Positions 37,180-60,991 of a stretch of 64,000 nt of DNA are shown here, one piece after another; the first letter of the stretch is position 1, and each line of letters begins with the position of its first letter. The notes below the pieces were generated by a model, which was given only the letters and a program-made list of their open reading frames with translations, ran no database searches and was not told the DNA's origin. Location of the stretch: IMG/VR virus record IMGVR_UViG_3300045731_000049; one strand, given 5' to 3'. The position numbers and the translations under genes were made by a program. The DNA comes from an uncultured virus (IMG/VR IMGVR_UViG_3300045731_000049). Its lineage: Duplodnaviria; Heunggongvirae; Uroviricota; Caudoviricetes.

Positions 37180-37204
37180 CCTAGTTCTAACCCTAAAGGT
37201 TTTG

Positions 37205-37220
37205 TTAATAATTTGTTAAC
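37205..37220 (+). promoter_or_regulatory. CtrA-binding box TTAA-N7-TTAAC
   Basis: TTAA-TAATTTG-TTAAC about 130 bp upstream of the flagellin start; matches the alphaproteobacterial CtrA consensus. Confidence 0.65.
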
Positions 37221-37347
37221 GAATTGGGCTATAGAACTCAGAGCAAGCTGGAATCATCGCATGTAAGCGAATGATCGACATGATGTCACCTCCAGCTTTT
37301 CGGTTCAAATCCGAAATGTCCCTATTCTCAAATTCGGGACTCAAACT

Positions 37348-38298: not shown

Positions 38299-38322
38299 TA
38301 TCGGTAGAGAAGCAGATTATTA

Positions 38323-38348
38323 GAGGCGGTGGAGAAATCCATCGCCTC
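38323..38348. terminator. hairpin between flagellin and the convergent adhesin
   Basis: GAGGCGGTGGA-GAAA-TCCATCGCCTC. Confidence 0.7.
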
Positions 38349-38362
38349 CTTGTATAAGCGCG

Positions 38363-41300
38363 CTAGTTTCCAGCTGTTGCTTTCCAAGTTCCTATATTTA
38401 CGTATTCACCATTTCTTTTGTTGGCGACAACGATCTCTGCCGAATTTCCAGCACCGGTAAACTTGGTCACACGTAGTCTCATGAATTTACGAGAAACTAC
38501 GACATTTACATCACTGCCGTTTGGAATTGCAGTCCATCCAGTCGTTGCCTCGCAAACTGCAAGCGTGTCGCATGTCTTATATTGAACTGCATTTGCTGAA
38601 TTATACGTCATGCGCATGGTCGCCATATCTTTAAAACCAGTCAATGTGGCTATTGCCGACTCAATGGGAACGTTTAGCTCCGCATCCACGACTTCTGGCC
38701 CGAAATCTAACTGGTCAATGATTGTCTGTGAATCGCGAGATATAAACGTCACTGAGCCAATGTCATCAAATGTAGCTGTTCCATCTACCGCATATGACAA
38801 AGTAAATACCCCTGAATCACTTGTTGTAGATGCCGTCTTTACTCTAACGCCAATATATTCGTTTGGTTTTACAGTTGTTATTTTGGAGCCGGAACCTATG
38901 CTTGCCCATCCCGACGTCATTTCCTCAGCTAATCTGCACTCTTCGTGTGTTTGGCAAATCTTATATTGCCCTGACAAAGTAGCCCCTCCAGTTTTTATAA
39001 AACGTAAGGTCGGGTTTTCCAAAGCACCAGTGATTTGAACTATTGCGGCTTTTGAATAAGTGTTCAATTCAATGCCATCAATATCTGGGCCGAACGAAAC
39101 TGGGTCTACGTTTACACTCTTATCTCGGGTGGAAACTGTAAATGTTGTCAGTTCTACGTAACCATTATTAAATAGTTTATCATATTGTATTATGGATGAA
39201 CCACTGCTCCCAAAGTTGGGATGAGCCTGAATTCTCAAGCGCATAAATGTTCCTGGATTCACCATAATCGAGGTGGTACTTGCAGTACTCCAACCATCTT
39301 CCCCTAAATTATCACACGCTTCGCGAGTTGCACATATCTGGTACTGTCGTGCATTCACGGTACCAGTTAAACCAAACCGCATGCGCGTCTGATCCAAAAA
39401 TCCTTTCATCTCGATGGTGTTACTCATTTTCCACTCCAACGGATTGGCTACGAGCGGGCCACCAATATCTACAGGATCCGGCGTATGGCTTCTCGCACGT
39501 GTGCTTACGGACCATGTCGTGAACGGAAGATATGATCCATTGGCTGGATTACGATATCCACCTTTTACATAAACCGTGCCGGAATAAACGTTAAGGCTCA
39601 TCGTCACTCTGAGACGGACGTATTGGTCAGGCTTTACATCAGGATAAACGTTCTGGTTTGCAACCTTCCACACCTGTCCCAATGAGGTTTGAGCCTCTGT
39701 GGTGTTGCATTCTGCAAGCGTGTCACACAGAAGGTAATGAAGAGAGCCACTCGGTGAACCTCCTGTTGCACTTTGTGACGTCACAAACTGAATTTTTGTG
39801 TTGTCCAAGAAACCATTTAACTGGAAAACATCAGAATATTCGATGGAATTTGGTTCTACTGTCCGAGGGTCTCCAAGATCAACGGAATTTATTTCCCAAC
39901 TTGACTTACGTGTTCCAATACTCCAAGCGGAAGAAGTTCCATTAATACTTACAAAAAGCGATTCAGTTGCTCCCGCAGAATTAGAAGAATTTCTCTTTAA
40001 TTGGATATACTGACCTGGTTGAATCGAGTCAGTTCTTGAAGTGGTCCCAGTTTTCCAATCCGCATCGCTACAGTCATCGATATTGCAAATGCGATGGCTA
40101 TACGCTCTGGTCTGCTGAGAAGATATGTTCACGGTAGATTGAAGCGCGATGCCTGTTACCTGCACCGGACGTGTTGTGAATTCCTGATTGGTTTCGACCC
40201 CAGTCAGATTTTCTGACTCGAAACTGAATATTGCAGGTGGATTTCCACCACGAACATTGACGGAAAACGTTGCAGTCTCGGTATCATCTTTAACCACAAC
40301 CTTACGACCATCGAACGTACCAGACGGCATTATACCTGTGATTACACCTGTGGTCGAATTAACATTCAGCCCCGGAACCTCACTACCTTCTTCCCATGCA
40401 AACGAAACCGGACCAACACTGTTTTTGACCTCTGGGGTGACGCTGGTTACGGAAATTCCTGAATTACCTGTGATTGTTGGCGTTGATATAGAGGCGATTA
40501 GCCTTACGATATCCATGCGAACTGTGTTGTTTGTATAACTGCTTATTTCATCACTTACTGCGAAGTAAGGTTCTAACGAACTCTGGTTGTAATTTATAGG
40601 GAACGTGCCACTTACAGCTCCCGTTTGGGGGTCCATAGTCAAATAAGACGGGAAATTTGTCCCTTTAAAAGTTACAGACCCAGCAGGTATTCCTGCTGTT
40701 AATCGTGCTGGCCCCGTTTGGAACGGCACACCACGGCGAACATTAACACTGTCTATGGTGTAGGCTGGTACTGGGTTTGAGCGAACGTTGATGCTGAATT
40801 CGTTGCTTTTGGCCTCATTACCAAGCGTGTCAGTAAGCGTGATGACATAGCCATCGTTGCGGCTGACGTCACTATTGCTCAGATACCCACCGACTTCGCC
40901 CGTTTCTGGGTTTATTGCAACCAATCCTGGCAGCTCCTTATTGATCGTATATACGTCTCCAATCTTCTTCGCAGTTACACTGGGGGTTAACGTCACACGC
41001 GAAGAACCAGCTTGCCAAAGATATGTTGTGTTGGTCTTAACTGTCGGCAGAATGCCACTCGCATATACCTTAATTGCGAACTCATTGCTGACTTGTCGGT
41101 CACCAACGGCATCAATTGCTTCAATATAATATCCCGTAAAATCGCCAAGAGCAGTCGGAGTTCCAGACACTGTCGCCGCCGTCTTACTAAACGATAGTCC
41201 AGTAGGCAGGGCGGGGCCAACCAGTTCGTATTTGACGGAACCAATGGCATATTCAACCGTGGGCTTCACAACAGCCATTTCAGTACTCGCAGTGACATTG

Positions 41301-44300
41301 ATCTGCTCTCGCATTGTCACTCGCATGTTCGGAATAACTTCGACTTGTATCGGCTTCGATGTAACCCTGTTGGTGCTATCTGTTACATGGATGTTTGCAG
41401 TCACCTTGATAGGCTCATTAAATTTACCAGATATTACACCAGTTATTGGGTCCAATATGATGCCATAAGCCTGTAGCTCATCTGTATAAAAGCTATAGTC
41501 TCCTACCGCATTCAGAACCAAGGGCATATCCGATACAAATGACATGCCAGCTTTTGTTTGAACACTGTATGTTGTTAACTGGATAGGTAAACCATCTGTG
41601 GTAACAACGAAGTTGATATCCAGAGATGCAGAACCACCCGCTGTGTCCGTTGCAGAAAGAGTTACAGGAAAAACACCAAGTGTAGTAGCTGTACCTGAAA
41701 ACAAACCATTCAGAAACGCAATGCCCGATGGCAGATCACCAGACACACTCCAGGATACGGTTCCGACTGCGTTAGTTGCTTTAGCTGCCTGAGAGAATGT
41801 TCTGCCTGCTATGACGCTTTGTTCAGTGGCATTTGCAATCTCTAAGGGAATTCTCTCAACAACATTCATGGAAATCACGGATGTGGTGAAGGTGTTGTTC
41901 TCCAAACCTTCATCCGTCCCCTTGATCGCAAATGAGGTTACGCCTGTGGTAGTCGGGATACCGGATATACCTCCAGTATTAGCGTTCAAAGACAACCCGT
42001 TTGGGAGAGTTCCGGCCACCTCGAAGAGGACATTACCGATAGCATTCTCGACATTTGGATTCATCGAGAAAGGAGCATGCTGATTGATGACATCAACAGA
42101 TGGGTAGGCAATTATCATGCCTTCTACGATCTTGATCGTAACATAGAACTTTGCAGTTCTTCCGGCTGAATCATTCGCCGTCATAGTTACAACCGCGCTG
42201 CCGACACCTGTTGGACGTCCGGAGAACACACCTGTTTCTGTCGATAAATCCAAACCAAGTGGATTTGATGGCGTTGCGCTATAATTTACCGCTCCAACCG
42301 AACCAGAAACTTTCGGCTCTGTTGACTGGAACCAAGAATTGACGCGACCCGTCGTGGTTACATTATCAACATAGAACGAGCCGTTGGGGATAACAGTGAT
42401 TGAGAACGCATCCGAAGCCCCGGTAAAACCCTCGCTGTCCTTCGCTGAGACCACAATGTTTTCGAAAACACCAGTTGCAATCGGCGTTCCATAGATAGAA
42501 CCGTCCGTGGTGTTGAATTGTAATCCATTCGGCAAGGCACCTGTCAGATTATATTCGACGGCACCAACCGCATTGATCGGCTCCAATGGACGCTTTGGCA
42601 ATCCATATGGTGAATTTTGGCGCAGCGGCTCAGTAAAGTCGTAGGCAACCTTAATTTGTTTACGTTCACCGACTGAAAGTTTTGTGGTTGCAGTAGCCTT
42701 GGTGCCTGATGCATCAATGGCCGTAATCGTTACAGTAGATAAAGCGCCTTCTGTAGTTGGCTGGCCGTATATTTCACCGTTTGTCGCATTGAACGACATG
42801 CCTCCTGGCAAAGAACCAGTCAAAGAGAATGTCACTGCACCAATGGGATCGGTGAGAACCGGAATAATCGAAGCGGCAGACATACGATTGAGTTGATATG
42901 AATTGTCGAGGGTCATAGTCATCGGGTTCGTGAAGGTCAGTCTGATACGCTTATCCGTCTCGCGATCCATACTGTCCTTTGCGACAATCATAACATCGCC
43001 ATTGAACGGTGATGACACGCGTCCCTGCAGAAACCCATCAGCAGTTACCGTTACACCAGCAGGAAGGCTACCTTGCGTTGAAAGTGAAACAGGGTCGGCA
43101 CCGTTTTTTACTTCAATACGAGTTACAAAATCTTTCCCAACAGGCCAAGAAAATCTTGACGTTACAATCTCAATGGCTTCAGCTGGCGTAATGTTGATAT
43201 CAAATGGCTCAGATAAAGCGCTCACTCCTTCAGAGTCTTTTACTTCAATGACAATACCCGAAAACGTTCCTTGTTGCGTTGGGGTACCAATGATTGATCC
43301 ATCCGGCGAAAATGTCATACCTGGCGGCAAAGTGCCACTTTTCAAAGTCCAATTTACAGATCCTGCGGCGCTTACAGCTTTAGCAAGTGGCAAATTTACA
43401 GACGAATAGACTGCAAATGTCGTGCGCAGTAGTTCAATCGAAAGAGGAGCCTTCTCATCCACACGTATCGAGAAATCGTTGGAACGAGCCGTTTCACCCG
43501 AACCATCTGTTAAGGTGATTGCCATAGGCCCAAAATAGCCAAGATCGGTGGCAATTCCTGTGATTGTTCCAATATTCTGGTTAAATACGAGACCAGCAGG
43601 CAATTCACTGCCTGAAAGCGCAAAATTGGCCAATCTTCCTTCGGCTTCGATTATTGTGTCCTTAGGAGCTTCCGCACGGATCATAACTTCAGTCTGCAGA
43701 CGCGTTACGACATTCTCTGATGGTGTCACAGAAACCGACAACGGCGCATATACGTTAATGCCAACTAGGAATGGAGAGGAAACCGTCCCATTCGCATCGG
43801 TCACCACCAATGACACTGTTTTATTCCCTGCTTCAGCTATTTGTCCACTAAGAACGCCAGTGGCATTATCAAGTGTCAAGCCTGATATTTCAGTTTGTCC
43901 GTCGGCGTATGAATAGCTAAAAGGCATACGACCATTCTTCACCGTTGGAACGGGTGTAGAGAATGACTTGTTTGCTCTGACATGAGTTCGTACAACCGCA
44001 ACTTCAAGCGGTTTCTCGGTAACCGTAATTTTGAACTCGTTGGATACAGCTGAGTATCCCGTTGACGTCGAAACTGAAATCTTCAGTCCCTCTGAAACGC
44101 CTGCAATCGTCGGCGTTCCAGAAATCACCCCAGTGTTTTCATCCAGAGAAATTCCGACAGGGAGCGTTCCTGAATCTAAATTCCATGTCGGTGTTCCTGT
44201 TAGTTCTGAAGCAGCCAAAGCGAACGAAGTGAAGGCACCCAAATATAAAGTGCGGTCGGCGACATTGTTCAAATCTAGATTAGGGTCACGAGTAGTAATA

Positions 44301-45211
44301 GTGAAATAGTTGGAATAACCGACAGTGCCATCAGTGTCGTAAGCCACAAATCGAACACGCATAGATGTACTGAAGGTGGCGATGGCTCCATTAATTCTTC
44401 CATTAACCTGATCAACACTCACGCCAGATGGCAAAGGGTCACCTTGAACAGCCCAAGTAATTTTTCCTGCCGTATTACGTGCGCTGGTCGAAATAGAAAA
44501 AACCTGCTTAGGCTCGTAAGTCCTGTTTTCGACAAAGGCGACATCTGGACCAGGATTAACGGTTATCTGCCCATAAACAAACGTAGAATTTGTTCCTGTA
44601 TAGTCTTTACCTTGGAATGCATACGAAAAAATGCCTTCAGTACCAGCTGGAGGCGTTCCTTCTATATTTGGTCCGTTTGCTCTTGCCCATGCGGGAGGAG
44701 CTAATACCGTTTCCCAAGTATATGCATCACCTACAGAGACCAGCAGTTGCTGAAAAAAACGATCAGCGTGTGCGTAAACATTTACCTCTTTTGAAGCTGG
44801 GGTGGCTTCAAAAACTGAAAAGTCAATATTTACCTTTGAAATATCTGCATTATCAGCGGAATATCCATAAATAAGAGCCTTCGTGACACCACGACCCGAT
44901 GCAATACCTTCAATTTGACCAGTGTTTTGATTGATAGATAGTCCGCTTGGCAACGAGCCAGATTTAATTTCCCAACGGGAAGCTGTTTTACCTGGTTTCA
45001 AAGGAATTTGATTTATTGATTGAACGCCGATAAAAGCGATATATGAAGCAGTAATATCATAGTCTTTTTCATCGACAGGTGGCTCAGGATCTATTTTATT
45101 GTAATCAACGTATCCTGTTTTATAGCGAAAAATATAGGATTCGGCGCTAGCAGGTGGTATCACCATAAGAATTGCAAGGACCGCTGAAAGTGCTGATTTA
45201 ATTATTTTCAT
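38363..45211 (-). CDS. giant secreted Ig-like (He_PIG-type) repeat protein, putative adhesin (paralog B)
   Basis: Signal peptide; collinear with paralog A (e.g. SYIFRYK, DGTVGYSNYF, NIHVTDSTNRVTSKPI); five C-terminal Cys-pair modules. Confidence 0.9.
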   Translation of the reverse strand: MKIIKSALSAVLAILMVIPPASAESYIFRYKTGYVDYNKIDPEPPVDEKDYDITASYIAFIGVQSINQIPLKPGKTASRWEIKSGSLPSGLSINQNTGQIEGIASGRGVTKALIYGYSADNADISKVNIDFSVFEATPASKEVNVYAHADRFFQQLLVSVGDAYTWETVLAPPAWARANGPNIEGTPPAGTEGIFSYAFQGKDYTGTNSTFVYGQITVNPGPDVAFVENRTYEPKQVFSISTSARNTAGKITWAVQGDPLPSGVSVDQVNGRINGAIATFSTSMRVRFVAYDTDGTVGYSNYFTITTRDPNLDLNNVADRTLYLGAFTSFALAASELTGTPTWNLDSGTLPVGISLDENTGVISGTPTIAGVSEGLKISVSTSTGYSAVSNEFKITVTEKPLEVAVVRTHVRANKSFSTPVPTVKNGRMPFSYSYADGQTEISGLTLDNATGVLSGQIAEAGNKTVSLVVTDANGTVSSPFLVGINVYAPLSVSVTPSENVVTRLQTEVMIRAEAPKDTIIEAEGRLANFALSGSELPAGLVFNQNIGTITGIATDLGYFGPMAITLTDGSGETARSNDFSIRVDEKAPLSIELLRTTFAVYSSVNLPLAKAVSAAGSVNWTLKSGTLPPGMTFSPDGSIIGTPTQQGTFSGIVIEVKDSEGVSALSEPFDINITPAEAIEIVTSRFSWPVGKDFVTRIEVKNGADPVSLSTQGSLPAGVTVTADGFLQGRVSSPFNGDVMIVAKDSMDRETDKRIRLTFTNPMTMTLDNSYQLNRMSAASIIPVLTDPIGAVTFSLTGSLPGGMSFNATNGEIYGQPTTEGALSTVTITAIDASGTKATATTKLSVGERKQIKVAYDFTEPLRQNSPYGLPKRPLEPINAVGAVEYNLTGALPNGLQFNTTDGSIYGTPIATGVFENIVVSAKDSEGFTGASDAFSITVIPNGSFYVDNVTTTGRVNSWFQSTEPKVSGSVGAVNYSATPSNPLGLDLSTETGVFSGRPTGVGSAVVTMTANDSAGRTAKFYVTIKIVEGMIIAYPSVDVINQHAPFSMNPNVENAIGNVLFEVAGTLPNGLSLNANTGGISGIPTTTGVTSFAIKGTDEGLENNTFTTSVISMNVVERIPLEIANATEQSVIAGRTFSQAAKATNAVGTVSWSVSGDLPSGIAFLNGLFSGTATTLGVFPVTLSATDTAGGSASLDINFVVTTDGLPIQLTTYSVQTKAGMSFVSDMPLVLNAVGDYSFYTDELQAYGIILDPITGVISGKFNEPIKVTANIHVTDSTNRVTSKPIQVEVIPNMRVTMREQINVTASTEMAVVKPTVEYAIGSVKYELVGPALPTGLSFSKTAATVSGTPTALGDFTGYYIEAIDAVGDRQVSNEFAIKVYASGILPTVKTNTTYLWQAGSSRVTLTPSVTAKKIGDVYTINKELPGLVAINPETGEVGGYLSNSDVSRNDGYVITLTDTLGNEAKSNEFSINVRSNPVPAYTIDSVNVRRGVPFQTGPARLTAGIPAGSVTFKGTNFPSYLTMDPQTGAVSGTFPINYNQSSLEPYFAVSDEISSYTNNTVRMDIVRLIASISTPTITGNSGISVTSVTPEVKNSVGPVSFAWEEGSEVPGLNVNSTTGVITGIMPSGTFDGRKVVVKDDTETATFSVNVRGGNPPAIFSFESENLTGVETNQEFTTRPVQVTGIALQSTVNISSQQTRAYSHRICNIDDCSDADWKTGTTSRTDSIQPGQYIQLKRNSSNSAGATESLFVSINGTSSAWSIGTRKSSWEINSVDLGDPRTVEPNSIEYSDVFQLNGFLDNTKIQFVTSQSATGGSPSGSLHYLLCDTLAECNTTEAQTSLGQVWKVANQNVYPDVKPDQYVRLRVTMSLNVYSGTVYVKGGYRNPANGSYLPFTTWSVSTRARSHTPDPVDIGGPLVANPLEWKMSNTIEMKGFLDQTRMRFGLTGTVNARQYQICATREACDNLGEDGWSTASTTSIMVNPGTFMRLRIQAHPNFGSSGSSIIQYDKLFNNGYVELTTFTVSTRDKSVNVDPVSFGPDIDGIELNTYSKAAIVQITGALENPTLRFIKTGGATLSGQYKICQTHEECRLAEEMTSGWASIGSGSKITTVKPNEYIGVRVKTASTTSDSGVFTLSYAVDGTATFDDIGSVTFISRDSQTIIDQLDFGPEVVDAELNVPIESAIATLTGFKDMATMRMTYNSANAVQYKTCDTLAVCEATTGWTAIPNGSDVNVVVSRKFMRLRVTKFTGAGNSAEIVVANKRNGEYVNIGTWKATAGN

Positions 45212-45355: not shown

Positions 45356-46051
45356 TCATGGTGCAAAACTTCTGCCAACGGTCATGGAGACCAACTCAAT
45401 CTGAGGCTTCATTCTGTCCCATAGTCCAAGAGGTTTGGCGATTTTTCGCAACATTTTCATACCTTCACCCTGGGGGGCTTTCTCAAGATATCTAACCAAT
45501 GTGTCATGAAATGCTTCCGTCTCAATAAATCGTTGGGTACGAATTGATGCTGGAGCTAGGTTCGAATATCGGAACATATCTACGACGGTTCGCTCTGGAG
45601 AAGTCACCTTCACATTCACGCCCTCCACAGAGATGACATCGACGCCAATCTCCATGAACGGTTCTGGCCAACTGAAATAGCGGGCGTCGACATTGGAGGT
45701 CAGCTCTGGAGAACCACCTTTCAGACCTGCTGGAACCGCGATATTGAGCTTGGAGGCCATCCCCTGGGTCATTTGATGAAATGCGGCAGCACTCTCCAAA
45801 CAGAAAACAATAGACGGATTACGAAGCGATGCCCATGCCCAAACAGCGCGCGGGTCCTCAGGCGTGTTACGTTCCACTGGCTGAAACACGCCGCGAGCGA
45901 CACGTTCCAACACGCCTGCTTTGATGAGGCGATTAAGCGCCATTCGATTAACACCCTTGATGCCTAGTTCGGCGCTGGTCATAGGGCGACCAGCTTTTGC
46001 CAACACTTGAAGAGCATTTTGTCCTGAAATTGAGTTCACATCCTCCGGCAT
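45356..46051 (-). CDS. abiEi: AbiEi-family antitoxin / transcriptional regulator
   Basis: N-terminal wHTH (LIKAGVLERVARGVF), CLESAAAFH, VTSPERTVVD. Confidence 0.85.
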   Translation of the reverse strand: MPEDVNSISGQNALQVLAKAGRPMTSAELGIKGVNRMALNRLIKAGVLERVARGVFQPVERNTPEDPRAVWAWASLRNPSIVFCLESAAAFHQMTQGMASKLNIAVPAGLKGGSPELTSNVDARYFSWPEPFMEIGVDVISVEGVNVKVTSPERTVVDMFRYSNLAPASIRTQRFIETEAFHDTLVRYLEKAPQGEGMKMLRKIAKPLGLWDRMKPQIELVSMTVGRSFAP

Positions 46052-51619: not shown

Positions 51620-52048
51620 ATGATTTACGGAAAGGTTGATCTTGAACCAATCGAAATCGAATTTTTGAAAGCAAAAATTGTGGTTGCTAAATCCCAGGTT
51701 CAAGCCAGCCTCGCGGTCAGCTCGTCTGCTCAAGAACAAACGTTCTACACCGAGATGAATCTCAAACTCTCGACCATTTCCACCCTCATGGATACTTGGC
51801 AGTCTGGAGTTCGGTCTCTGGAAGAAGACACGCTCCTGCTCCTAAGAGGGCTTGCTGCACCTGCTCGCCCGACTGAATACGCATTACGATTGGAAGCCGC
51901 AAAAACAGCGCATGACGCTTCAGAAATGGCTAGCATCATGGCGGAATGGGATTTATCCAAGCTTTTGCAAGCAAAGTTAGAGGAGCCATTTCTCAAAGAT
52001 AATTCACAGGATGCCGAAGCGGAAGACGACGAGCAATCTCATAATTAA
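51620..52048 (+). CDS. hypothetical protein
   Basis: 142 aa, AAGGAG RBS. Confidence 0.7.
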   Translation: MIYGKVDLEPIEIEFLKAKIVVAKSQVQASLAVSSSAQEQTFYTEMNLKLSTISTLMDTWQSGVRSLEEDTLLLLRGLAAPARPTEYALRLEAAKTAHDASEMASIMAEWDLSKLLQAKLEEPFLKDNSQDAEAEDDEQSHN

Positions 52049-52137
52049 ATCTTCAATTATAAAATTTACAATTTTTGGCTTGCCCTCTGGTGTTTAATTG
52101 GTCAACATTTTTACATTCGACCATTGGGAGTAATTAA

Positions 52138-52470
52138 ATGGCAAATGAAAATACTATAATTAATTTCGATCCAAATATGAATTATTCTGGAAACATGTCA
52201 ACGAAGACGTTACGAATGACGTTTGGCGTTTGGGATTATCGTCTGACAAGGGAAGTGACCGTTGGCGGCAACGGTGCTGGCTTCCATAACATCGATTCTG
52301 CACTCATGCAGATTTACGATGACGTTGGAGATAAAGGCATCGTACTCAAACGCGAAAGTGATGGCGACACTCTTCTCTGCGAAGACGACGAAGGACAGGG
52401 CGAAGACTGGCTCAAGGAAATGCTGATCGCAGCTGAAATCATTGCCGTTGCGCCCCAAGAATGGCGCTAA
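52138..52470 (+). CDS. hypothetical protein
   Basis: 110 aa, GGGAG RBS. Confidence 0.7.
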   Translation: MANENTIINFDPNMNYSGNMSTKTLRMTFGVWDYRLTREVTVGGNGAGFHNIDSALMQIYDDVGDKGIVLKRESDGDTLLCEDDEGQGEDWLKEMLIAAEIIAVAPQEWR

Positions 52471-52477
52471 ACCGATG

Positions 52478-52741
52478 TTATGTTTCGATGGAGAGGATGT
52501 CGTCTTCGTCGAACACTATCTCAGCAACAGCATATGGCGGCCCAGCTAACCTGCTCGGGTCGCTTTCCATTTTTGGCTCCAATTTAATGGCTGACAAGGT
52601 GCGAGAGCCGATGTCAGTCACGATCCATTCGCCACCGCCATTTGTGAAAGGGCTGCCGATCTTCAGGTGAGCGAGATCGCAACGGAGATGACCTGCATTC
52701 AAGTCTGAGAGATTAGGTTTCAATTCTTTGATCGCCCTCAA
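52478..52741 (-). CDS. hypothetical protein
   Basis: 87 aa; W.VTDIGSRT...GPPYAVAEIVFDE motif. Confidence 0.6.
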   Translation of the reverse strand: MRAIKELKPNLSDLNAGHLRCDLAHLKIGSPFTNGGGEWIVTDIGSRTLSAIKLEPKMESDPSRLAGPPYAVAEIVFDEDDILSIET

Positions 52742-52919
52742 TGGCGATTGTGTAGTTTGGGCTATGTTTCATTGAAAGTAGCCCGGAGGCGGTCAATTTA
52801 CAAGGTAGTCGGAAATGTATAGCAGACCGTCTTGCGGACATCGTCCGACCGAAACGCCTGTTTTCAACGACACTTGCGAGATCCGCAGTTACGATGGTTC
52901 CAATATTCGGATATCGTTT

Positions 52920-54716
52920 ATGACTGAAAGCCTCGACATACAGAAGAAAGCCGTCCTTCGTCTGCTGCACGCCTATGCTCCACAGAATGAGAAGGTGGAC
53001 CCACTTCTCGTGGTGTCGCTCGGACGAGTCTTGCTCAAGGGCGCAAAACGCAACGAGGACATCCATTCACTCGTAACAGGTGATCAAGTCCGTCACATAT
53101 ACGACTGGCTGAAGGCCGAAGTCTTAAACGGAGCGGAATGGCTGTCGAATTGCGATGAGAAAGGACGTCCGAGGAAGCTGCTCAAGTTCGGGTCCGTCGC
53201 TCAGATCGTTCAGGAAGCGGACCAGGCCATGGAAAAGGCCAACCAGGGCACAGGCAAGGTTTCTCTGATCGAAGGCGATGAAGTCCTCATTGCAGAACTG
53301 GAAGACGGCTACTCGCTCGTTCGGATGCTCACACCTGCAGCGCTCGACCGCGAGAGCCAAGTTATGCAGCACTGCATCGGAAATGGCGGTTACGACGACG
53401 AGCTTACAAAAGAATGGGCGAGATTTCTTTCTCTGAGGGACGCTTCAGGTAACCCTCATGTTACCATGGACATCTCAATTAACGATGATCGGATGAATAT
53501 TAATCAGATCAAGGGGAAACAGAATGCGGTGCCAATCGCCAAATATCTGTCGATTCTTCGCCCATGGTTTGCAGAAATGAAAGCTACTCTGACCTACATG
53601 CCAGAACGAGGGTTAATGGTTTCGTCGAATGAAGAAATTTATCACGCCAGCGAGCTGCCAGATGACTTCGAATGCAAAAGAGATTTTCGAGCACATGAAT
53701 TGGAGGGGGCTAGGATTCCAGAACGTCTTAAAGTTCATGGACATATGAGCATTATCAGCTACGACGGCGAGAACACTCAAAGTCATCTCCCCGAGGGGCT
53801 GTATGTCGGCGGGGATTTAACGATCAGGTCTCCTATGATCGAGGTAATTTCCAAAAATACGACAGTCAAAGGCACACTGCGAGCGAGCTGTTCAAATATC
53901 TCCGCAATCGGAGAGGGCCTTACTGTCTTTGGCGATTGTTATTTGGCGAACACAAAAATCGAAAAGCTTCCTTCCAAATTAACCGTCATCGGGAAGTTAT
54001 TCATCGGCGAAACCCAAGTCAAAGAAATTGGAGAATCCGTAATATTCAGCTCGCTCGATGCCTCAGGAAGCTATCTGGATGCGGTTCCTACGCACATCAA
54101 AGAGTATGATGAACTGAAGATAGACGGGACATCAGTCAAAGGCCTCCCGGAAGGACTATCAATTTCAAGATTTAGTGCTACAAATGTCGATTTTGCTAGT
54201 TTTCCAGAAAATCTCCGAGTTGAAGATGATTTGATACTTTATCGTGCCAATATCCCGGTGTTGTTCGACACATTAAAACTCCCTCTTGATTCCTGTTTTG
54301 CTGTATCAAAGATCGGGGAAATGCGCGGTGATATCGTGTTTGAAGGCCCTATTCGTAACAGCGTAGATTTTACGGATGCAAAAATAGGCAAGCTGCCAGA
54401 TAGCATAACCGTAATTGATGGTGATCTCATATTGAATGGAACGGATATCTCTACACTTCCTAGAAAATTGCATGTTACCCATAATATTGATCTGCTGCAC
54501 ATGGAAAATCTCAAGGAATTACCATCTGATTGTGAGTTGTCATGTGAAAAATTGTTATTGGACCATGATTCAAAATTCGAAATACCAAAACATTGGAAAG
54601 TGAAGACAGTTGCTCTTGTGGGTGGTGGCGAATACGAAACGACTATGACTGCCGAGGAGTATCGGCAAAGGGTTCGGAAAGAATTTGCTATGTTGGAATC
54701 GACATTGAAATTCTGA
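52920..54716 (+). CDS. PcfJ-domain protein with C-terminal LRR-like repeats
   Basis: ALDRESQVMQHCIG...SLRDASGNPHVT...QIKGKQN, then LP.GL.V.G.L repeats; start inferred at ATG 52920. Confidence 0.75.
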   Translation: MTESLDIQKKAVLRLLHAYAPQNEKVDPLLVVSLGRVLLKGAKRNEDIHSLVTGDQVRHIYDWLKAEVLNGAEWLSNCDEKGRPRKLLKFGSVAQIVQEADQAMEKANQGTGKVSLIEGDEVLIAELEDGYSLVRMLTPAALDRESQVMQHCIGNGGYDDELTKEWARFLSLRDASGNPHVTMDISINDDRMNINQIKGKQNAVPIAKYLSILRPWFAEMKATLTYMPERGLMVSSNEEIYHASELPDDFECKRDFRAHELEGARIPERLKVHGHMSIISYDGENTQSHLPEGLYVGGDLTIRSPMIEVISKNTTVKGTLRASCSNISAIGEGLTVFGDCYLANTKIEKLPSKLTVIGKLFIGETQVKEIGESVIFSSLDASGSYLDAVPTHIKEYDELKIDGTSVKGLPEGLSISRFSATNVDFASFPENLRVEDDLILYRANIPVLFDTLKLPLDSCFAVSKIGEMRGDIVFEGPIRNSVDFTDAKIGKLPDSITVIDGDLILNGTDISTLPRKLHVTHNIDLLHMENLKELPSDCELSCEKLLLDHDSKFEIPKHWKVKTVALVGGGEYETTMTAEEYRQRVRKEFAMLESTLKF

Positions 54717-54768
54717 ATTTTCTATTTCTTTATGAATATATGTCAGTTAACATTATTGTACACCGCAG

Positions 54769-54915
54769 GGCTATCCGACATCTGAGGTTGATGCAGGTTC
54801 CTGGTTCAACGCTCCATACCTGCCAGATGCAATTGCGTCTGGCCCAGCAGAGGAAGCTCCACAGGCGTTGATGGGAATAATTACTCCCATCCGTTCGGGC
54901 ATAGCCTGCCCTACG
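54769..54915 (-). ncRNA. predicted TnpB omega-RNA scaffold overlapping the tnpB 3' end
   Basis: Hairpins GGGCA-GGCTA-TGCCC, GATGGGA...TCCCATC and GCCAGA...TCTGGC; ACGCCTGTGGAG...GAACCAGGAA motifs resembling those at tnpB 3' ends; 5' boundary uncertain. Confidence 0.6.
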
Positions 54916-56027
54916 TAATTTAATCCATAATTGCGCAGATTAAGCGCTGCATTGAAGTCGCGATCCGCGACATTTCCACACGAAGCGCACCGATAGGTGC
55001 GTTCGTGAAGACGGAGACGGTCTTCTCCGCTTCTGATATTTCCGCAGGATGAACATTTCTGGGTCGATGGTTCAAACCGACCGACTTTGATATGTTGCTT
55101 ACCCGCCCATTCAGCCTTATAGCTGATCTGCCGTAATGCTTCTCCCCATCCTGCATCGGAGATGGAACGAGATAGGCGCTTGTTCTTCAGCATGCCCTGG
55201 ACGTTCAGATCTTCTGTCACAATGACATCGGCCCGACGAACCAAAGCTGTCGTCGCCTGATGCAGAGCATCAGAGCGATAGTCAGCCACTTTGGCATGAA
55301 GAACAGCTACACGAGCCGCCTGACGGCGTCTGTTGGCACTGTTCTTCTGCCGTCGCGCCAGGATGCGCTGCGCGCGTCTCAGGCGCTTCTGTGTCTTGCT
55401 CAACTTGCGTGGGTTGGAAACACCCACGCCATCAGAACTGGCCATCAGTGATGCAAGGCCTAAATCAACGCCGATCACATTCTTGATCGGGAGGGATGAT
55501 ACATCTGGAACATCAATGTCCTGTTCCACCTCACACTGAACGACACACCACCATGTTCCAGCCCTTTGTGAGACTGTCGCAGATAAAATCCGGCCTTCTG
55601 GAAGCCGTCCCGCACGAAACTTCACACCCTGCTTCATTTTAGGCAGAACAACGCGACTGTTCTCGATGCGCAGGCTTTGATTAGCTATATAAAAAGCTTC
55701 TCTCGAAATACCACGCTTCTTGAAACGGGGAAAACCTGCGCCTTCCTTGAAGCATTTTTTCAGCGCCTGATCCAGATTCCGACAAACCCGTTGCAGAGAA
55801 TTGGATGGTGCATCAGCAAGCCATGGATTTTCAACCTTCAGAGTGGGTAAGAGTTGATCCATTTCAAAACGGAAAATGAATTTCTTTTCCGCTTCGTATT
55901 TCTTCTGCTGAAGATCGAGCAGGTAATTCCATAACCAACGGCATGATCCAGCGAAGCGTGCCAACATATCCGCCTGTTCCACAGTCGGATATAACTTCAG
56001 CCTGTATGCTTTCTGGATTAATGCCAA
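54771..56027 (-). CDS. tnpB: RNA-guided endonuclease TnpB
   Basis: AYRLKLYPT HTH, RuvC motifs GVDLG / TEDL / DRDFNAA, CSSC...CASC zinc finger; stop codon lies inside the TIR. Confidence 0.95.
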   Translation of the reverse strand: MALIQKAYRLKLYPTVEQADMLARFAGSCRWLWNYLLDLQQKKYEAEKKFIFRFEMDQLLPTLKVENPWLADAPSNSLQRVCRNLDQALKKCFKEGAGFPRFKKRGISREAFYIANQSLRIENSRVVLPKMKQGVKFRAGRLPEGRILSATVSQRAGTWWCVVQCEVEQDIDVPDVSSLPIKNVIGVDLGLASLMASSDGVGVSNPRKLSKTQKRLRRAQRILARRQKNSANRRRQAARVAVLHAKVADYRSDALHQATTALVRRADVIVTEDLNVQGMLKNKRLSRSISDAGWGEALRQISYKAEWAGKQHIKVGRFEPSTQKCSSCGNIRSGEDRLRLHERTYRCASCGNVADRDFNAALNLRNYGLNYVGQAMPERMGVIIPINACGASSAGPDAIASGRYGALNQEPASTSDVG

Positions 56028-56127
56028 TGATTAAGATTCTCGGTTTGTTCAAAGCCAGAACTGAGCTCATCAGCTCGATATGTCAAGAGCATAAAACTGG
56101 TCCATCAACCTCAGATGTCGGATAGCC

Positions 56128-56262
56128 CACCGCAGTAAACGGACAGCAACGGGACTACAAAGAACCAGCGGCGAGAGCAATAAGCTCAGTGAAATGTACA
56201 TCTCACTCTTGCAGTGGTGTCTAAACCTCCGTTCAATGTAAAAGGCTCCTTCGGGAGCCTTT
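56128..56262 (+). ncRNA. candidate structured ncRNA interrupted near its 5' end by the TnpB element
   Basis: ORF-free; hairpins GAGC-AATAA-GCTC and AGTGA...TCACT; AACGGA/TCCGTT pairing; ends in a UUCG terminator. Confidence 0.4.
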
Positions 56263-56268
56263 CTGTTT
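56241..56268 (+). terminator. intrinsic terminator with UUCG loop
   Basis: AAAGGCTCC-TTCG-GGAGCCTTT-CTGTTT. Confidence 0.8.
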
Positions 56269-57030: not shown

Positions 57031-58314
57031 TTAAAACGCAATCTCGAAATCCGCCACCAGTGCAAGTTTTTCGGTTCGTTCGATCAATGCCTTTGAATAA
57101 TCATCCGGCATCGGAAGTTCTTTCAGCAAATCTCGCCATTGGTCAGCGGCCTGTTCGACGACGATCTTGACTTCCTTATCCAGTCTCTTTTGAGGAACGT
57201 CGCAGAATGAGGCAAGTTTACGAAACCGATTGAGTGCTAAAATCTCACTGTTGTGAGTATTTCTGAACCGTAGTGCCATATCATTACGCCTGTCATAGAC
57301 ATAGCTCGCTACAATATCATAGGCGGGGCTGAGCTTCCCTTCTGATGCTTCTGGATACCACAGAGACCAGTTCTTCAAGTGAGCGTCAGTGTTTCCCATC
57401 AACACATTTGCCGCCACTCTTCTGACAGCTTGCAGAAAAGCTTCAGTTCCGCCACCGAGACGGTTCGCAATGTTTACGACTGTTTCTTCGTTCGCGGCCG
57501 TATATTTTCTCGTGGGCTGCTCGCCTAAAATCTGTAAAAAGTCTTCCATATGCACACGCTGACCGTCAGGTGTACGATCAAATCGTTGTACAGCTAATAC
57601 CAGATCGCCACCTTTTAGGATGTCCTCATCAAGACCACTGATTTCCTTGGTGGAAACAAGGTCCATTTGAGGAATGGTAATGCCAACAGCTTCGGCCAGC
57701 TTCATAGACGAAAACTCGACTTCGGGAAGATTTCGGAACTTTTCGCTTGGCAACTTGGCTACGATGTTTCCGTGTTCGCCAACAGCAGGAAACGTCAATC
57801 GTTCACCCTGCTTTAGCATTGACATCTTCAACTGAACGCCAGCTAGCGAAAAACGGATGCCGGATTGTCTTTCGACTTCGTCAGATAACATAAACTCGAC
57901 TTCAGTTCCTTCTTCTGGTCGCACAATTACAGCACCAGGCAAATCTTCGCCGAGCCACGCCAACACATCGTAATCAGACGTGTGTCCAGTAGGCATCCCG
58001 CGCATTACCATGTCTCTTAGAGCGCCTTCAGGAAGAAGGTTTGAGAACCATGCCGGAATTTCCCTGCCTGCTTGAACCATCGGACCAGCGCGCAAAAGTT
58101 CAACTGTTTCCTCTTCATTGCCGTAGCGGAGTAGCGACGAGCTCAGCAAAGGACGGTTTGAACCTAGCTCAATGTAAGATTCATCAATATCGAAGCGTAC
58201 GATGTTACGGGCATCCCGAGTAAGCGAGCCGACGCGCACTTCCTCGCCACCAGCCTGAAGATAGATACCAAGAACCTCAAATCTGCTCACGTACGAACTC
58301 CGTTTAACGATCAA
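57031..58314 (-). CDS. hipA: HipA-family Ser/Thr kinase toxin
   Basis: FSNLLPEG, FSLAGVQLK, QRFDR, HMEDF, GNTDAHLKNWS, LSPAYD. Confidence 0.92.
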   Translation of the reverse strand: MIVKRSSYVSRFEVLGIYLQAGGEEVRVGSLTRDARNIVRFDIDESYIELGSNRPLLSSSLLRYGNEEETVELLRAGPMVQAGREIPAWFSNLLPEGALRDMVMRGMPTGHTSDYDVLAWLGEDLPGAVIVRPEEGTEVEFMLSDEVERQSGIRFSLAGVQLKMSMLKQGERLTFPAVGEHGNIVAKLPSEKFRNLPEVEFSSMKLAEAVGITIPQMDLVSTKEISGLDEDILKGGDLVLAVQRFDRTPDGQRVHMEDFLQILGEQPTRKYTAANEETVVNIANRLGGGTEAFLQAVRRVAANVLMGNTDAHLKNWSLWYPEASEGKLSPAYDIVASYVYDRRNDMALRFRNTHNSEILALNRFRKLASFCDVPQKRLDKEVKIVVEQAADQWRDLLKELPMPDDYSKALIERTEKLALVADFEIAF

Positions 58315-58619
58315 TCATCATCACTATCAGGAATGAAGAGTTCATCCCGAACGCTTTTCACTGGGCTGTAGGTCTTGTTCTTAGGATCGAGATGACCGTT
58401 TACCATTTCCTGTACAGAACCAATGATCCTTTTAGGAACGAGAACAAAATCAGCGTTCAATGCAGCAATTAAGCTCATCAATGTCGAAACTTCGACGTTT
58501 GCTTTTCCGCTTTCAATTCTGGAAATGTCTCCTTGATGGATACCAGAAATTTCAGCTAATTGTTTTTGCGTCCATCCTTTGGCCTTACGCAACTTCCGGA
58601 TATCATTCAGAAAATTCAT
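58311..58619 (-). CDS. hipB: HipB-like XRE HTH antitoxin
   Basis: RKAKGWTQKQLAEISGIHQGDISRIESG; overlaps the hipA start; GGAGG RBS. Confidence 0.85.
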   Translation of the reverse strand: MNFLNDIRKLRKAKGWTQKQLAEISGIHQGDISRIESGKANVEVSTLMSLIAALNADFVLVPKRIIGSVQEMVNGHLDPKNKTYSPVKSVRDELFIPDSDDD

Positions 58620-58861
58620 GCACAGGCCTCCTTTGCTGCCATCATATAGCTTATACGCCATACTATGTCAATATTATAGGTTTTAAGCCATACCGAGAAA
58701 CCAAGGGAACATGTATCTAAATACAACATCCATGCTTACTATTGAGTGTCGTTCGCAAATTCATCAAATGAATGCCCCATAAAAGATAATTCATAAAGCC
58801 ATAAATCCTGAAATTAAAAGAACAAAAGAATTGACAAACTTATATTTCAGAAACTCTAATA

Positions 58862-60991
58862 ATGCAGGATTTAAGGAAAATTGCCATGATTTATGAAATT
58901 GAAAATATTCGTGATATCAACACCGATGTCTATTCAACGGATAAGGTGCCATTGGACGAAACATTACAGAGAATATCCAATGGGCAGATTCAGTTGCCAA
59001 ACTTTCAAAGATCATGGAAATGGAACAATGAACCTATCGTCAAATTGATTGAATCAGTAACCGAGTGTGCTCCCATTGGCACAATTATGTTCATTGAAAC
59101 GGGTGGCGAGTCTCGTTTTGACTGCATACCGATTAATTCTGTCGACTTGATTAAGGTAAAAGACGTTCGTCCTGATATGCTCGCAATGGACGGACAACAA
59201 CGACTAACATCTTTGTATCAGGTACTATATTCCCATAAACCTGTCGTGATTAATCATGAGCGCAAAAAGCCGGAATACCGCTATTATTTTATGGATATGT
59301 GTAAGGCGCTCGATGCTAACGTCGAATTACGGGATGCAATCATTTCATTGAAAGTTGACGAAAACGGAACGCCACTTAAGGGGGAAGTCGACTACACCGA
59401 TCTTAGAATTCAATGCGAGCGGGGTGTATTCCCTCTCAACATGACATTCCGAATGGCAGAATGGGAATCCAAGATTCTTGAGAATATTAAGCTGTTCGAT
59501 ATGAACGGTTTGGAAATTGAGTTATTTAATAAGACAGCGATGCTTTTCAGAGAAAAAACCATCAAAGGCTTCGTGAAGGCTACTTTACCAGTAATTGTGC
59601 TTAGAAAACATATTACTCTGGGTTCGCTTTCTAAGCTCTATGAAAAGATTAACTCAATTGGCGTTCCCTTGAATGCTTTTGATCTACTGATCGCTCGCTA
59701 CGCGGCCCAAGGCTTCAATCTAAGGGAATCCTGGGGCGAGATTCAGGGCGAACTTGAAAAGGGGAACAAAAACCTACGGAAGAAAATCGCAGAGAGCCCA
59801 TTTCTTCTGAGCGTTCTTTTATACACGACGATCCTTGAGGAACGGAGCCTAGCAGCAACAAAGGGCGCAATTCTCGGATTAACCCTTGAGGACTTTAAAA
59901 AACATAAAGATACCGTGGTAAAAGGATACATCGAAGCAATTAGATATCTTCATTTGAAGAAGCTTGCTACCTCGAAGGAACTTCCTGCAAATACTCTCAT
60001 TTCAACTATGGCTCTGGTTCATTCTCTTCTTGGCAAAGAAGCTAGAGATCATCAAGTGATGAAGAAAATCGATCAATGGTTCTGGACCATCAGTCTGACG
60101 GGCTTCCATTTGAATAAGCCAACTGTCATCGCAGCAGACATTATCACTTTGCTTAAGTGGGCGCGGGGGACATCAGACACGCTCCCTTATGCAATGAGAA
60201 CCGCTCAGTTTATCGATGTGAACATTTCACGTTACACGAAAGGCGGAGCAATGACCTCAAGGTGTATTTCCGCCGCCTTAATGGCTTCTGTGGAGGACTT
60301 TATTACAGGATCGTCAGTAAATGATCATATAGTTGCTGATGACGGTTTTGATGTACACCATATTTTCCCCGCCAGCTGGTGTAAGGACAATAACATACAG
60401 CAGGAGCGCCGTGATAGTGTTGTTAACAAGACTCCGCTTTCGAAGTCAACGAATAGATATATTGGTGGCCATGCTCCCTCTACTTATATTGAGTACATTA
60501 AGAACGATACGAAAGTTCCTGACAACTTGATCAAGAAACGTGTAGAAAGTCACGGAATCAACTATGAACACCTAATCGCAGATGATTTTGATGCTTTCTT
60601 TTATGAGCGGGAGGCATTTATTTATGACACCATTGAAAAGCTGACTGGTATTTCTGTTATTCGAAGCGAGGAGGGCGGTCAGCGAATTCAGTTAAATTCC
60701 AGAGGCATTACCGTTAATGCGGTTAGAGGAACACACAACACTGTTGTCGTTTTACCTGGTTCAACGATGACGAGAGATCATAATCCAGGACTTCGGGAAG
60801 GTTACGTTGATTTTCGCGAACGGCTGATACAAGGCAAGGATGTGATGCTGAATCCAGATGGCCTATACGAAGTCCTCAATCCTATTCCAATGGAATCGCC
60901 AAGTTATGCTGGTTCCGTTTTGTCCGGTCGAATGACTAATCTTGAAGATTGGAAAGTTCTGACGGAGGATGAAGACGAAGCTGAAGATTAA
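58862..60991 (+). CDS. GmrSD-family restriction protein (DUF262 + DUF1524/HNH) with C-terminal DUF4357/RAMA-like domain
   Basis: LPNFQRSWKW, DGQQRLTSL, DVHHIFP...N.TPL...N, and VVLPGS...SPSYAGSVLSGR...WK. Confidence 0.85.
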   Translation: MQDLRKIAMIYEIENIRDINTDVYSTDKVPLDETLQRISNGQIQLPNFQRSWKWNNEPIVKLIESVTECAPIGTIMFIETGGESRFDCIPINSVDLIKVKDVRPDMLAMDGQQRLTSLYQVLYSHKPVVINHERKKPEYRYYFMDMCKALDANVELRDAIISLKVDENGTPLKGEVDYTDLRIQCERGVFPLNMTFRMAEWESKILENIKLFDMNGLEIELFNKTAMLFREKTIKGFVKATLPVIVLRKHITLGSLSKLYEKINSIGVPLNAFDLLIARYAAQGFNLRESWGEIQGELEKGNKNLRKKIAESPFLLSVLLYTTILEERSLAATKGAILGLTLEDFKKHKDTVVKGYIEAIRYLHLKKLATSKELPANTLISTMALVHSLLGKEARDHQVMKKIDQWFWTISLTGFHLNKPTVIAADIITLLKWARGTSDTLPYAMRTAQFIDVNISRYTKGGAMTSRCISAALMASVEDFITGSSVNDHIVADDGFDVHHIFPASWCKDNNIQQERRDSVVNKTPLSKSTNRYIGGHAPSTYIEYIKNDTKVPDNLIKKRVESHGINYEHLIADDFDAFFYEREAFIYDTIEKLTGISVIRSEEGGQRIQLNSRGITVNAVRGTHNTVVVLPGSTMTRDHNPGLREGYVDFRERLIQGKDVMLNPDGLYEVLNPIPMESPSYAGSVLSGRMTNLEDWKVLTEDEDEAED

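Follow-up and report, generated by a model that had tools for sequence, protein, structure and literature searches.

TnpB is the ancestor of Cas12, and its known natural role is the protection of IS200/IS605 elements from loss after scarless excision. A stretch of 64,000 nucleotides recorded as DNA of an uncultured virus (IMG/VR IMGVR_UViG_3300045731_000049), the whole of which is called the window in this paper, contains a tnpB gene enclosed by terminal inverted repeats (TIRs) and flanked by a target-site duplication. In the text available from a 2026 review (PMC13565253), the IS200/IS605 and IS607 families are without TIRs and make no duplications. This locus raises the question of what kind of element carries the gene, what moves the element, and what the nuclease could do for it. 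A sequence-only reading of the window had taken the locus for a non-autonomous OMEGA element with DDE-type ends, moved in trans. The anatomy of the element, its independent copies and its ISL3-encoding relatives support this as the best reading, and we consider the element to be, most probably, a non-autonomous member of the ISL3 family with a TnpB/omega-RNA module as its sole cargo.

Anatomy of the element

The boundaries were read directly from the sequence. The element occupies positions 54769-56127 of the window and is 1359 bp long, and its parts are listed below in window coordinates (ORF, open reading frame; aa, amino acids; TAM, transposon-adjacent motif; no strand is assigned to the repeats and duplications).

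54749-54768, minus strand: predicted guide segment of the omega RNA, in which the TIR would be read through into the duplication and flank, by analogy with IS200/IS605 TnpB
54761-54768, no strand: target-site duplication, copy at the tnpB 3' end, CACCGCAG; its minus strand is the first 8 nucleotides of the predicted guide
54769-54793, no strand: TIR at the tnpB 3' end, 25 bp, GGCTATCCGACATCTGAGGTTGATG; includes the tnpB stop codon at 54771-54773
54769-55030, minus strand: candidate omega RNA scaffold, a conserved structured region that overlaps the tnpB 3' end
54771-56027, minus strand: tnpB, 418 aa, TTG start; the only long ORF in the element
56028-56102, minus strand: untranslated region upstream of tnpB, containing TTGACA at 56087-56082
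56103-56127, no strand: TIR at the tnpB 5' end, the exact reverse complement of 54769-54793
56128-56135, no strand: target-site duplication, copy at the tnpB 5' end, CACCGCAG again
56136-56139, minus strand: candidate TAM, TTTA (TAAA on the plus strand), immediately 5' of the duplication in the orientation of tnpB

Direct reading confirmed the perfect 25-bp TIRs, the 8-bp duplication, the length of 1359 bp and the position of the tnpB stop codon inside the TIR, as had been described for this locus. The TTGACA hexamer had been placed inside the other end; it is actually subterminal, 16-21 bp inward of the inner edge of the TIR and outside the TIR itself, and a consensus promoter scan of the tnpB-upstream end found no promoter. 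When up to 3 mismatches were allowed, the 25-mer TIR had exactly 2 matches in the 64-kb window, one per strand, while the mean number of matches in 100 shuffles was 0.00.

The protein matches the Pfam families HTH_OrfB_IS605, OrfB_IS605 and Cas12f1-like_TNB, and scores as an RNA-guided TnpB with NCBIfam. The solved structure of ISDra2 TnpB (8h1j) aligns with its residues 5-373 (E 3.2e-63). The RuvC acidic residues and the zinc finger had been claimed to be intact, and an alignment of 22 sequences of the clade bears this out: D188, E272 and D355/D357 of RuvC and the cysteines C325, C328, C347 and C350 of the zinc finger (CxxC...CxxC) are all invariant. The clade comprises 8 protein clusters at 83% identity or more. 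Plasmids gave no close relative (4020 matching records, all below 60% identity, the best at about 40%), exact peptide patterns of the protein found none in viral contigs, and megablast of the element against E. coli genomes, plasmids and phages gave nothing. The nearest plasmid-borne relatives (36-40% identity) are in IS607- or IS605-type elements.

More distant relatives were also noted. About 38 further TnpB clusters (P0129-P0165) at 45-60% identity mostly end in ..ST(E/S)..(G/A/V). From the protein tails, the part that was looked at, this ending would be expected for ORFs that terminate inside a TIR of the GG.TAT.CG...GGTTGA type. A 48-49%-identical TnpB is encoded on a 543-kb viral contig (L126:2337-3738, L128), in an element whose inverted repeat is another one, of 29 bp (ACTATCGCATCAGATCAGGTA...). 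Its direct repeat includes TTTAGTTAC and is ambiguous at 6-9 bp, and its boundaries are ambiguous by 1-2 bases. In a second copy, an insertion of about 1.1 kb is present close to the upstream end.

Independent copies of the element

Five further complete copies of the tnpB element, each flanked by a duplication and about 80-86% identical to that of the window, were found, three in a Mesorhizobium genome and two on metagenome contigs. The former were obtained from a scan of species-representative genomes and are located on one 1.19-Mb contig of Mesorhizobium sp. SP-1A (hereafter G001). Their proteins are 85-87% identical to the window TnpB, and at the nucleotide level the identity is 82-83% and spans exactly from the first to the last base of the TIRs. 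Their own 8-bp duplications are CAATTTGC, AATTAAGC and ATGCTGGT. A scan of metagenomes with a degenerate TIR pattern gave 8 stretches, which include the two intact tnpB copies, with the duplications TTGCGATT and TTCTCATT, as well as a decayed copy that has lost one TIR and has no duplication (L026) and a truncated copy (L027). Two other sister copies are decayed, one by a frameshift (L003) and one by an internal deletion (L024). The sequence-only reading had suggested that the TIR would lead to other copies and that their duplications should be compared; the five further complete tnpB copies lie within these TIRs, and each of the six duplication-flanked copies has its own 8-bp duplication.

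Among the 20 complete TIR pairs of the wider TIR family that were examined, a perfect 8-bp duplication was present in 16, a duplication with 7/8 matching bases in 1, and none in 3, and the duplicated sequence differed between elements. On this sequence evidence, the element is a real mobile unit.

The exact TIR of the window had no match in the viral contigs. Six of 401 genomes of the order of G001 had matches to the TIR pattern, and pairs of ends were present only in G001 itself, which has four complete pairs and one degenerate pair; the same pattern read backwards, used as the control, gave one match each in 2 further genomes. One more TIR-like match in G001 (G001:C2:658114) is located inside an ORF and has no partner end, and it was taken as a chance match. 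The genome scans around G001, for the TIR pattern and for the 631-aa protein described below, gave neither a further copy nor a partner.

The window stretch was also found in 24 listed ant-metagenome runs, and the contigs of 4 of them were compared with the region. The contigs break up inside the element, and each of the 4 runs has a contig that parts from the window precisely at position 54769; over all runs, two other flanks were seen on the left-hand side. Two of the runs (X1 and X10) have a contig with a more divergent copy, which shows 33 differences in 203 bases. Six runs recorded as RNA contain the stretch, including two of the 4 compared; as contigs, they are no evidence of transcription. 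A parse of the element with a 26-bp TIR and a shorter duplication had also been put forward. This parse is excluded, because the independent copies and the ant-metagenome contigs diverge exactly at the TIR tip (54769), the homology of the copies ending at GGCTAT.../...ATAGCC with an 8-bp duplication.

The shell belongs to the ISL3 family

DDE-family ends had been proposed for this element, with IS1595, IS6 and IS1 as examples. The first part holds, as seen from the 8-bp duplications and from TIRs shared with DDE elements, but the family is ISL3, of the ISPpu12-like kind. A scan of viral contigs with the degenerate TIR pattern GGNTATNCGNCANNNNNGGTTGA gave 45 loci, most of which were single matches and probably due to chance, and the ends were then paired. 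One element of 2411 bp (L085), with the duplication GTAAAAAA, has a TIR that agrees with the window TIR at 23/27 bases. It encodes a 500-aa protein with the domains DDE_Tnp_ISL3 (PF01610, E 3.6e-50), Zn_ribbon_ISL3 and HTH_Tnp_ISL3. Another of 2386 bp (L111; duplication CGACTTCG) encodes an ISL3 DDE domain (E 5e-40), and its TIR agrees at 22/27 bases with that of a Rhizobium leguminosarum element described below. A third, of 2238 bp (L082:3501-5738), has an ISL3 transposase together with a C-5 cytosine DNA methyltransferase as a passenger, and no duplication. Elements with such ends and no ORF were found as well: three, of 306, 331 and 625 bp, have perfect 8-bp duplications, and a fourth, of 981 bp, has none. 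The shell was assigned to ISL3 because near-identical TIRs and 8-bp duplications enclose ISL3 DDE transposases on these viral contigs.

The transposase of the 2411-bp element is 37% identical to that of ISPpu12 over 348 aa (E 7e-75). On plasmid pWW0, the ends of ISPpu12 (GGGTATACGGATTTAATGGTTGA and an imperfect partner, 3372 bp apart) surround an ISL3 transposase, and the end agrees with the window TIR at 14/23 bases in register, including GG.TAT.CG and GGTTGA. ISPpu12 is described with 24-bp inverted repeats and 8-bp duplications in the text available from PMC3735179. ISL3 copies sampled from other Pseudomonadota (3/41 and 9/121 genomes) have different TIRs (GGCTCYTC..., GGTTCATCG...), and the match of the window TIR is therefore to one ISL3 subgroup, not to the family at large. 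A solitary TIR-like 26-mer on a Komagataeibacter plasmid had no transposase nearby and was set aside.

The element of the window thus has in common with ISL3 insertion sequences such as ISPpu12 the 8-bp duplications, the TIRs of about 24-25 bp starting with GG, and the register GG.TAT.CG...GGTTGA. Passenger genes, like the methylase above, and ORF-less forms are common among these insertion sequences and their derivatives. It differs from them in that it has no ISL3 transposase and its cargo is an RNA-guided nuclease with an ORF ending inside the TIR. Since tnpB is its sole ORF, and since tblastn of the window with three ISL3 transposases gave no match, the element should be regarded as non-autonomous and not as an ISL3 insertion sequence proper.

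The protein by itself would be compatible with an ordinary tnpB-only (IS1341-type) element of the IS200/IS605 or IS607 family, the TIR and duplication having been misread, because this TnpB is typically ISDra2-like and its nearest plasmid relatives are found in elements of those families. The ends are not compatible with it: the copies end at the TIR tips, each with a different 8-bp repeat, and the same ends surround ISL3 transposases. In addition, a Pfam scan of 46 of the 70 listed window ORFs of at least 110 aa found no DDE, Y1 or serine recombinase. We regard such a misreading as barely credible.

Other cargo in the same shell

The fourth complete TIR pair of G001 encloses an element of 1969 bp, with the duplication GCTTTTTC and an ORF of 631 aa. 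Both this ORF and tnpB end within the TIR, with the residues STSDVG, and BLASTP detected no similarity between the 631-aa and 418-aa proteins beyond this 6-residue TIR-encoded tail. A second, decayed copy in G001 has the duplication CCTCTTTA. The TIRs of the two elements are near-identical to those of the tnpB copies, one of them being identical over the 23 bases scanned. A 41%-identical relative of the 631-aa protein is encoded on a 1.3-Mb plasmid of R. leguminosarum, within an element of 1967 bp with homologous TIRs (GGGTATTCGTCACGAACGGTTGA...) and the duplication CGTCTACG; a sister copy on the plasmid has the duplication GCATGGCC. The plasmid has three places with an element of this cargo type, and G001 has two on one contig.

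The 631-aa protein had no Pfam match and a borderline NCBIfam match to 'TnpB-related' (E 6.8e-8), and the profile of its family matched only coiled-coil proteins among the PDB sequences. The best Foldseek matches of its structure model (pLDDT 76) were Cas12k, followed by Cas12f and Cas12m, where the Cas12k match (8rdu_A) had an E of 7.2e-9 and a low TM-score of 0.36. The protein belongs to a family of about 600 aa. Scoring of 8000 candidates gave at least 727 relatives, and nearly all of the organism-named ones are from Rhizobium, Agrobacterium or Mesorhizobium. D350, E410, D413 and H481 are invariant in this family, the position of the third RuvC Asp is occupied by an invariant His, and there is no zinc finger. 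Among genomes of the family of Mesorhizobium, the 631-aa protein was found in 1/61 and, in a stricter scan that gives a floor, in at least 1/401, the positive genome being G001 both times. All 5 complete elements examined with the ~600-aa cargo are ISL3-type shells, 4 with perfect duplications and 1 with 7/8. The family is annotated as 'IS200/IS605 accessory protein TnpB-related'.

A third cargo was found on two metagenome contigs. It is a TnpB of 546/551 aa with a zinc finger, GC-rich, and matches NF040570 (E 4e-22). The copy with both ends present (L028) has the duplication AAAGAAGG, and the left end of the other (L029) was not found. The loci are as follows.

L013:3003-4898, minus strand: ~600-aa protein
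L014:2079-4031, plus strand: ~600-aa protein
L036:1353-3319, no strand: ~600-aa protein
L028:1799-3439, plus strand: 546/551-aa TnpB
L029:313-1968, plus strand: 546/551-aa TnpB

As far as the sequences go, three cargos of the TnpB type, unrelated to one another, share one TIR shell.

Relatives of the ~600-aa protein at 31% identity are located directly downstream of an IS607 serine recombinase on a Pseudomonas plasmid or of an ISLre2 transposase on a Thermaerobacter plasmid (loci L048:2334-4662 and L047:1459-4635). More than one change of vehicle has apparently occurred in this protein lineage. Because these relatives adjoin IS607 or ISLre2 enzymes, the TIR shell is to be seen as a trait of a Rhizobiales subclade and not of the whole ~600-aa family.

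The presence of a TnpB-like gene as the only gene of the shell in every host replicon examined could also mean that the cargo proteins are the shell's own transposases, with the RuvC/RNase H fold acting in a DDE-like manner. No ISL3 transposase was found in either G001 or the R. leguminosarum plasmid, and the large ~600-aa family, with several copies on single records, would agree with such a role. However, three cargo proteins share the same TIRs, and with the 631-aa and 418-aa proteins being dissimilar, it is unlikely that all of them recognise those TIRs. Closely matching TIRs, again with 8-bp duplications, enclose true ISL3 transposases, and ORF-less derivatives exist. We are aware of no report of strand transfer by a TnpB or Cas12 protein. 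A transposase function of the cargo is thus highly improbable, and the cargo of the window element is better understood as a passenger of a non-autonomous ISL3 shell.

A predicted guide RNA and a candidate TAM

In an alignment of 7 copies, conservation over the last ~260 nucleotides of the element exceeds that of the remaining ORF, with long invariant runs and loss of the third-position pattern. The structure predicted by RNAalifold ends in the TIR and consists of 11 helices with 81 pairs, 5 of which have compensatory changes. The covariation score of this structure was reached by 0/500 shuffles, and slid controls gave 0-1 compensatory pairs. The segment 54749-54768, which would be the guide, is the part of the alignment that is not conserved between copies.

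The dinucleotide TA was present directly 5' of the duplication, on the promoter side, in 6/6 duplication-flanked tnpB copies (TTTA in four, CTTA and GCTA in one each) and in 0/8 control elements (Fisher p = 3.3e-4). Five of the controls carry the ~600-aa cargo, including the two G001 elements with near-identical TIRs; one control has the 546-aa cargo, and two encode ISL3 transposases. A seventh, decayed tnpB copy without a duplication (L026) has TA at the same place, too. The sequences flanking the elements with the ~600-aa cargo, CAAA, CCAA, GTGA, TCGT and CGTC, have no common motif. The oriented TTTA beside the duplication is thus found with tnpB-bearing copies only, in contrast to the ISL3 elements without tnpB. 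Since the motif is found on one side only, a symmetric preference for the target does not account for it; its behaviour is that of a TAM, and we treat it as a candidate TAM. Both the TA and the structured RNA at the 3' end would fit a guide RNA targeting the empty site. It cannot be told from these data whether the TTTA pattern comes from the choice of sites or from the survival of insertions. By analogy with known TnpB systems, the omega RNA, the TAM, the transcription and the cleavage by this TnpB are predicted features.

A possible cycle can be drawn from these features. An ISL3 transposase encoded elsewhere would bind the TIRs, excise the element, and insert it with 8-bp staggered cuts. 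tnpB would be transcribed from the upstream end, and the 3' part of the transcript would fold into an omega RNA scaffold ending in the TIR, with the duplication and the flank as the guide. TnpB and the RNA would then recognise the unoccupied site, composed of TTTA, the duplication sequence and the flank, and cut it. Repair from the occupied copy would restore or spread the element, which would amount to homing or retention as for IS200/IS605 TnpB. The strict, cargo-specific and one-sided TA/TTTA would be the footprint of the TAM requirement.

Alternatively, the nuclease may take part in the choice of the site itself, such that TnpB, or the ~600-aa Cas12k-like protein, binds TAM DNA and recruits or licenses the ISL3 transposase. 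DDE transposition would then be directed, in a minimal form, by RNA or by the TAM, instead of insertions being retained afterwards through homing. The orientation and cargo specificity of the motif, which separates the tnpB copies from controls of the same genome with near-identical TIRs, would agree with such active targeting, and so would the two duplication-flanked ISL3-encoding elements without the motif. The ~600-aa cargo, whose best match is Cas12k, the effector of CRISPR-associated transposons (CAST), and which has an invariant His as its third RuvC acidic position, points in the same direction. Nevertheless, the duplications and flanks differ between the copies; since the guide is fixed by the flank of the previous site, it cannot have selected the new ones. 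The nuclease triad of the window TnpB is intact, the elements with the ~600-aa cargo lack a common flanking motif, the sites number only 6-7, and differences in survival among insertions are an equally good explanation of the pattern. Active targeting is therefore unlikely.

A wider proposal takes the ISL3 shell and its RNA-guided cargo as a coupled system, because the TAM-bearing side is fixed relative to the element only with TnpB cargo. The nuclease may then steer either landing or survival, and RNA-guided homing of a bacterial cut-and-paste DDE transposon would have come together on at least three occasions in one shell, the TnpB lineages being unrelated. Going by its structure model, the ~600-aa Cas12k-like protein, in which an invariant His replaces the third RuvC Asp, could fill the same role in the sister elements. 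We offer this proposal as a speculative one and consider it rather doubtful.

The partner transposase and the unoccupied site

Several observations weigh against a non-autonomous ISL3 element that homes by means of its TnpB. An ISL3 transposase was not found by tblastn in the window with the element. The 6-Mb G001, with five duplication-flanked elements, gave 0 matches to PF01610 and NF033550, although this is a draft genome and absence is not proof. The ISL3 match on the R. leguminosarum plasmid is a zinc-ribbon-like N-terminal fragment only, whose score of 33 bits falls short of the cut-off. The elements that encode ISL3 transposases between matching ends are on unrelated viral contigs and not in the same hosts. 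No empty site was found for any insertion when the flanks of 11 elements were compared with the available DNA: only the left flank of one element (L022) was matched, to window 15197-15810, and no recognisable empty site lies beyond. G001 has DNA 78% identical to window 51970-53380 and a 71%-identical copy of 56139-56268, and the insertion point is not included in either match. In the 4 ant-metagenome runs, no contig joint skips the element; since rare variants are lost from contigs, this does not argue for immobility. As to the RNA, the covariation rests on 7 related sequences from which the structure itself was derived, and Rfam had no family match for the tnpB 3' region. Finally, ISL3 elements themselves have no TTTA preference, whereas every tnpB copy adjoins such a motif.

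The sequence-only reading had proposed to look for an empty allele with a single duplication and for an autonomous partner. The former appeared neither in the flank comparisons nor in the contigs. As to the latter, ISL3 elements with matching ends are present on viral contigs. Since no ISL3 transposase was found in the window or G001, mobilisation in trans is inferred only, from the anatomy and the relatives of the element.

The same gaps, together with the decay of four sister copies (L003, L026, L027 and L024), would be accounted for if the window copy were a stranded relic, that is, an immobile one-off capture with a nuclease that has no role. However, in this copy the TIRs and the duplication are perfect and the ORF is intact. 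The 8 clusters of the clade and the ~38 more distant ones, mostly with a TIR-like ..ST...G tail, point to a long-lived association of TnpB and shell, and several sequence variants are present in the ant-metagenome runs compared. A stranded relic is thus very unlikely, and the non-autonomous ISL3 element with a TnpB/omega-RNA module is the reading that we retain.

Surroundings in the window

Directly beside the insertion there is a non-coding stretch of about 130 nucleotides (56139-56268), at the end of which is a strong terminator-like hairpin (56241-56262). A 71%-identical copy of the stretch is present in G001 (G001:C2:252267-252391). The stretch is possibly a small RNA gene, or else a 3' untranslated region that has been conserved. 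Farther away, a flagellin gene (37348-38298) lies between two giant ORFs of 2275 and 2282 aa (window 29897-45211), both packed with He_PIG Ig-like repeats. A cluster of defence or addiction genes (17623-18600, 45356-46051, 57031-58661 and 58862-60991) comprises AbiEii, AbiEi, HipA with an HTH partner, and GmrSD, together with HNH, PcfJ-like and polyvalent-protein ART domains. This gene content suggests that the window is part of a large plasmid or another mobile replicon. Parts of the window are 76-78% identical to the Mesorhizobium contig and to a 596-kb metagenome contig.

Relation to known systems

ISL2, IS630 and IS1031 make duplications of 2-3 bp or TA, not of 8 bp. These three are the DDE partners of TnpB that are given in the available text of the 2026 review (PMC13565253). 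A literature search for TnpB with ISL3 gave no paper naming ISL3 as a TnpB carrier among the matches listed, the lone co-mention being, by its title, a Proteus resistance-genome paper.

DDE-linked TnpB as a kind has already been described. In the text available from Altae-Tran et al. 2023 (PMC10691335), six DDE-associated TnpB branches have inverted terminal repeats, solo TnpBs lie within near-identical ends, the tnpB 3' ends are at most 250 bp from the transposon end, and mobilisation in trans was inferred for the solo TnpBs. For the branch called 'DDE-5', the supplementary information gives a "TA motif 8bp upstream" of the end, examples of insertion and excision, and presence on plasmids. 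The window element shares with 'DDE-5' a bacterial TnpB between inverted terminal repeats, solo copies, the TA motif 8 bp upstream, and a tnpB 3' end near the transposon end. The text consulted does not name ISL3, and the likeness is by description, not by placement in a tree. Because the published TA motif 8 bp upstream and the inverted ends are the features seen here, the element very likely belongs to the 'DDE-5' branch or sits beside it, as likened by description. These bacterial branches also make out of date the premise of the sequence-only reading that TIR-captured TnpB is mainly eukaryotic (Fanzor). Fanzor, in the text available from Bao and Jurka 2013 (PMC3627910), is a TnpB homologue carried as a passenger in eukaryotic cut-and-paste DDE transposons with TIRs and duplications; the window element differs from these in its bacterial host, its compact canonical TnpB and its ISL3 shell.

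With the IS1341 group of IS200/IS605, the window element shares an ISDra2-type TnpB, a predicted omega RNA that covers the gene's 3' end and would continue into the DNA outside, and a candidate TAM where the unoccupied site would place it beside the guide target. That group differs in having no TIRs and no duplication, and in having subterminal hairpins and a Y1 HUH transposase. Because of the duplication, the candidate TAM of the window is 8 bp from the element end, whereas in IS200/IS605 the TAM abuts the left end. The elements with the ~600-aa cargo, as distinct from the window gene, resemble type V-K CAST and its Cas12k in the missing third RuvC acid and in residence in a transposon. They have no CRISPR array, no Tn7-like genes and no similarity at the sequence level, so that the resemblance is one of overall architecture only.

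The window element is, accordingly, a clean new example of a published kind, the DDE-linked solo TnpB. Corrected or added with respect to the sequence-only reading are the ISL3 shell, its three unrelated TnpB-type cargos, and the oriented TTTA on the tnpB copies alone. The ~600-aa Rhizobiales family, annotated as an accessory of IS200/IS605, is actually carried in ISL3-type shells in the complete elements examined. What stands out is how tightly a cut-and-paste transposase, itself non-specific, and a nuclease that depends on a TAM would be registered with each other. A TnpB/RNA module serving a cut-and-paste DDE transposon with target duplications is much less explored than its role in IS200/IS605, and this TIR family offers a compact, testable case, with its 25-bp ends, an ISL3 partner type, a predicted TAM and guide, and three cargos.

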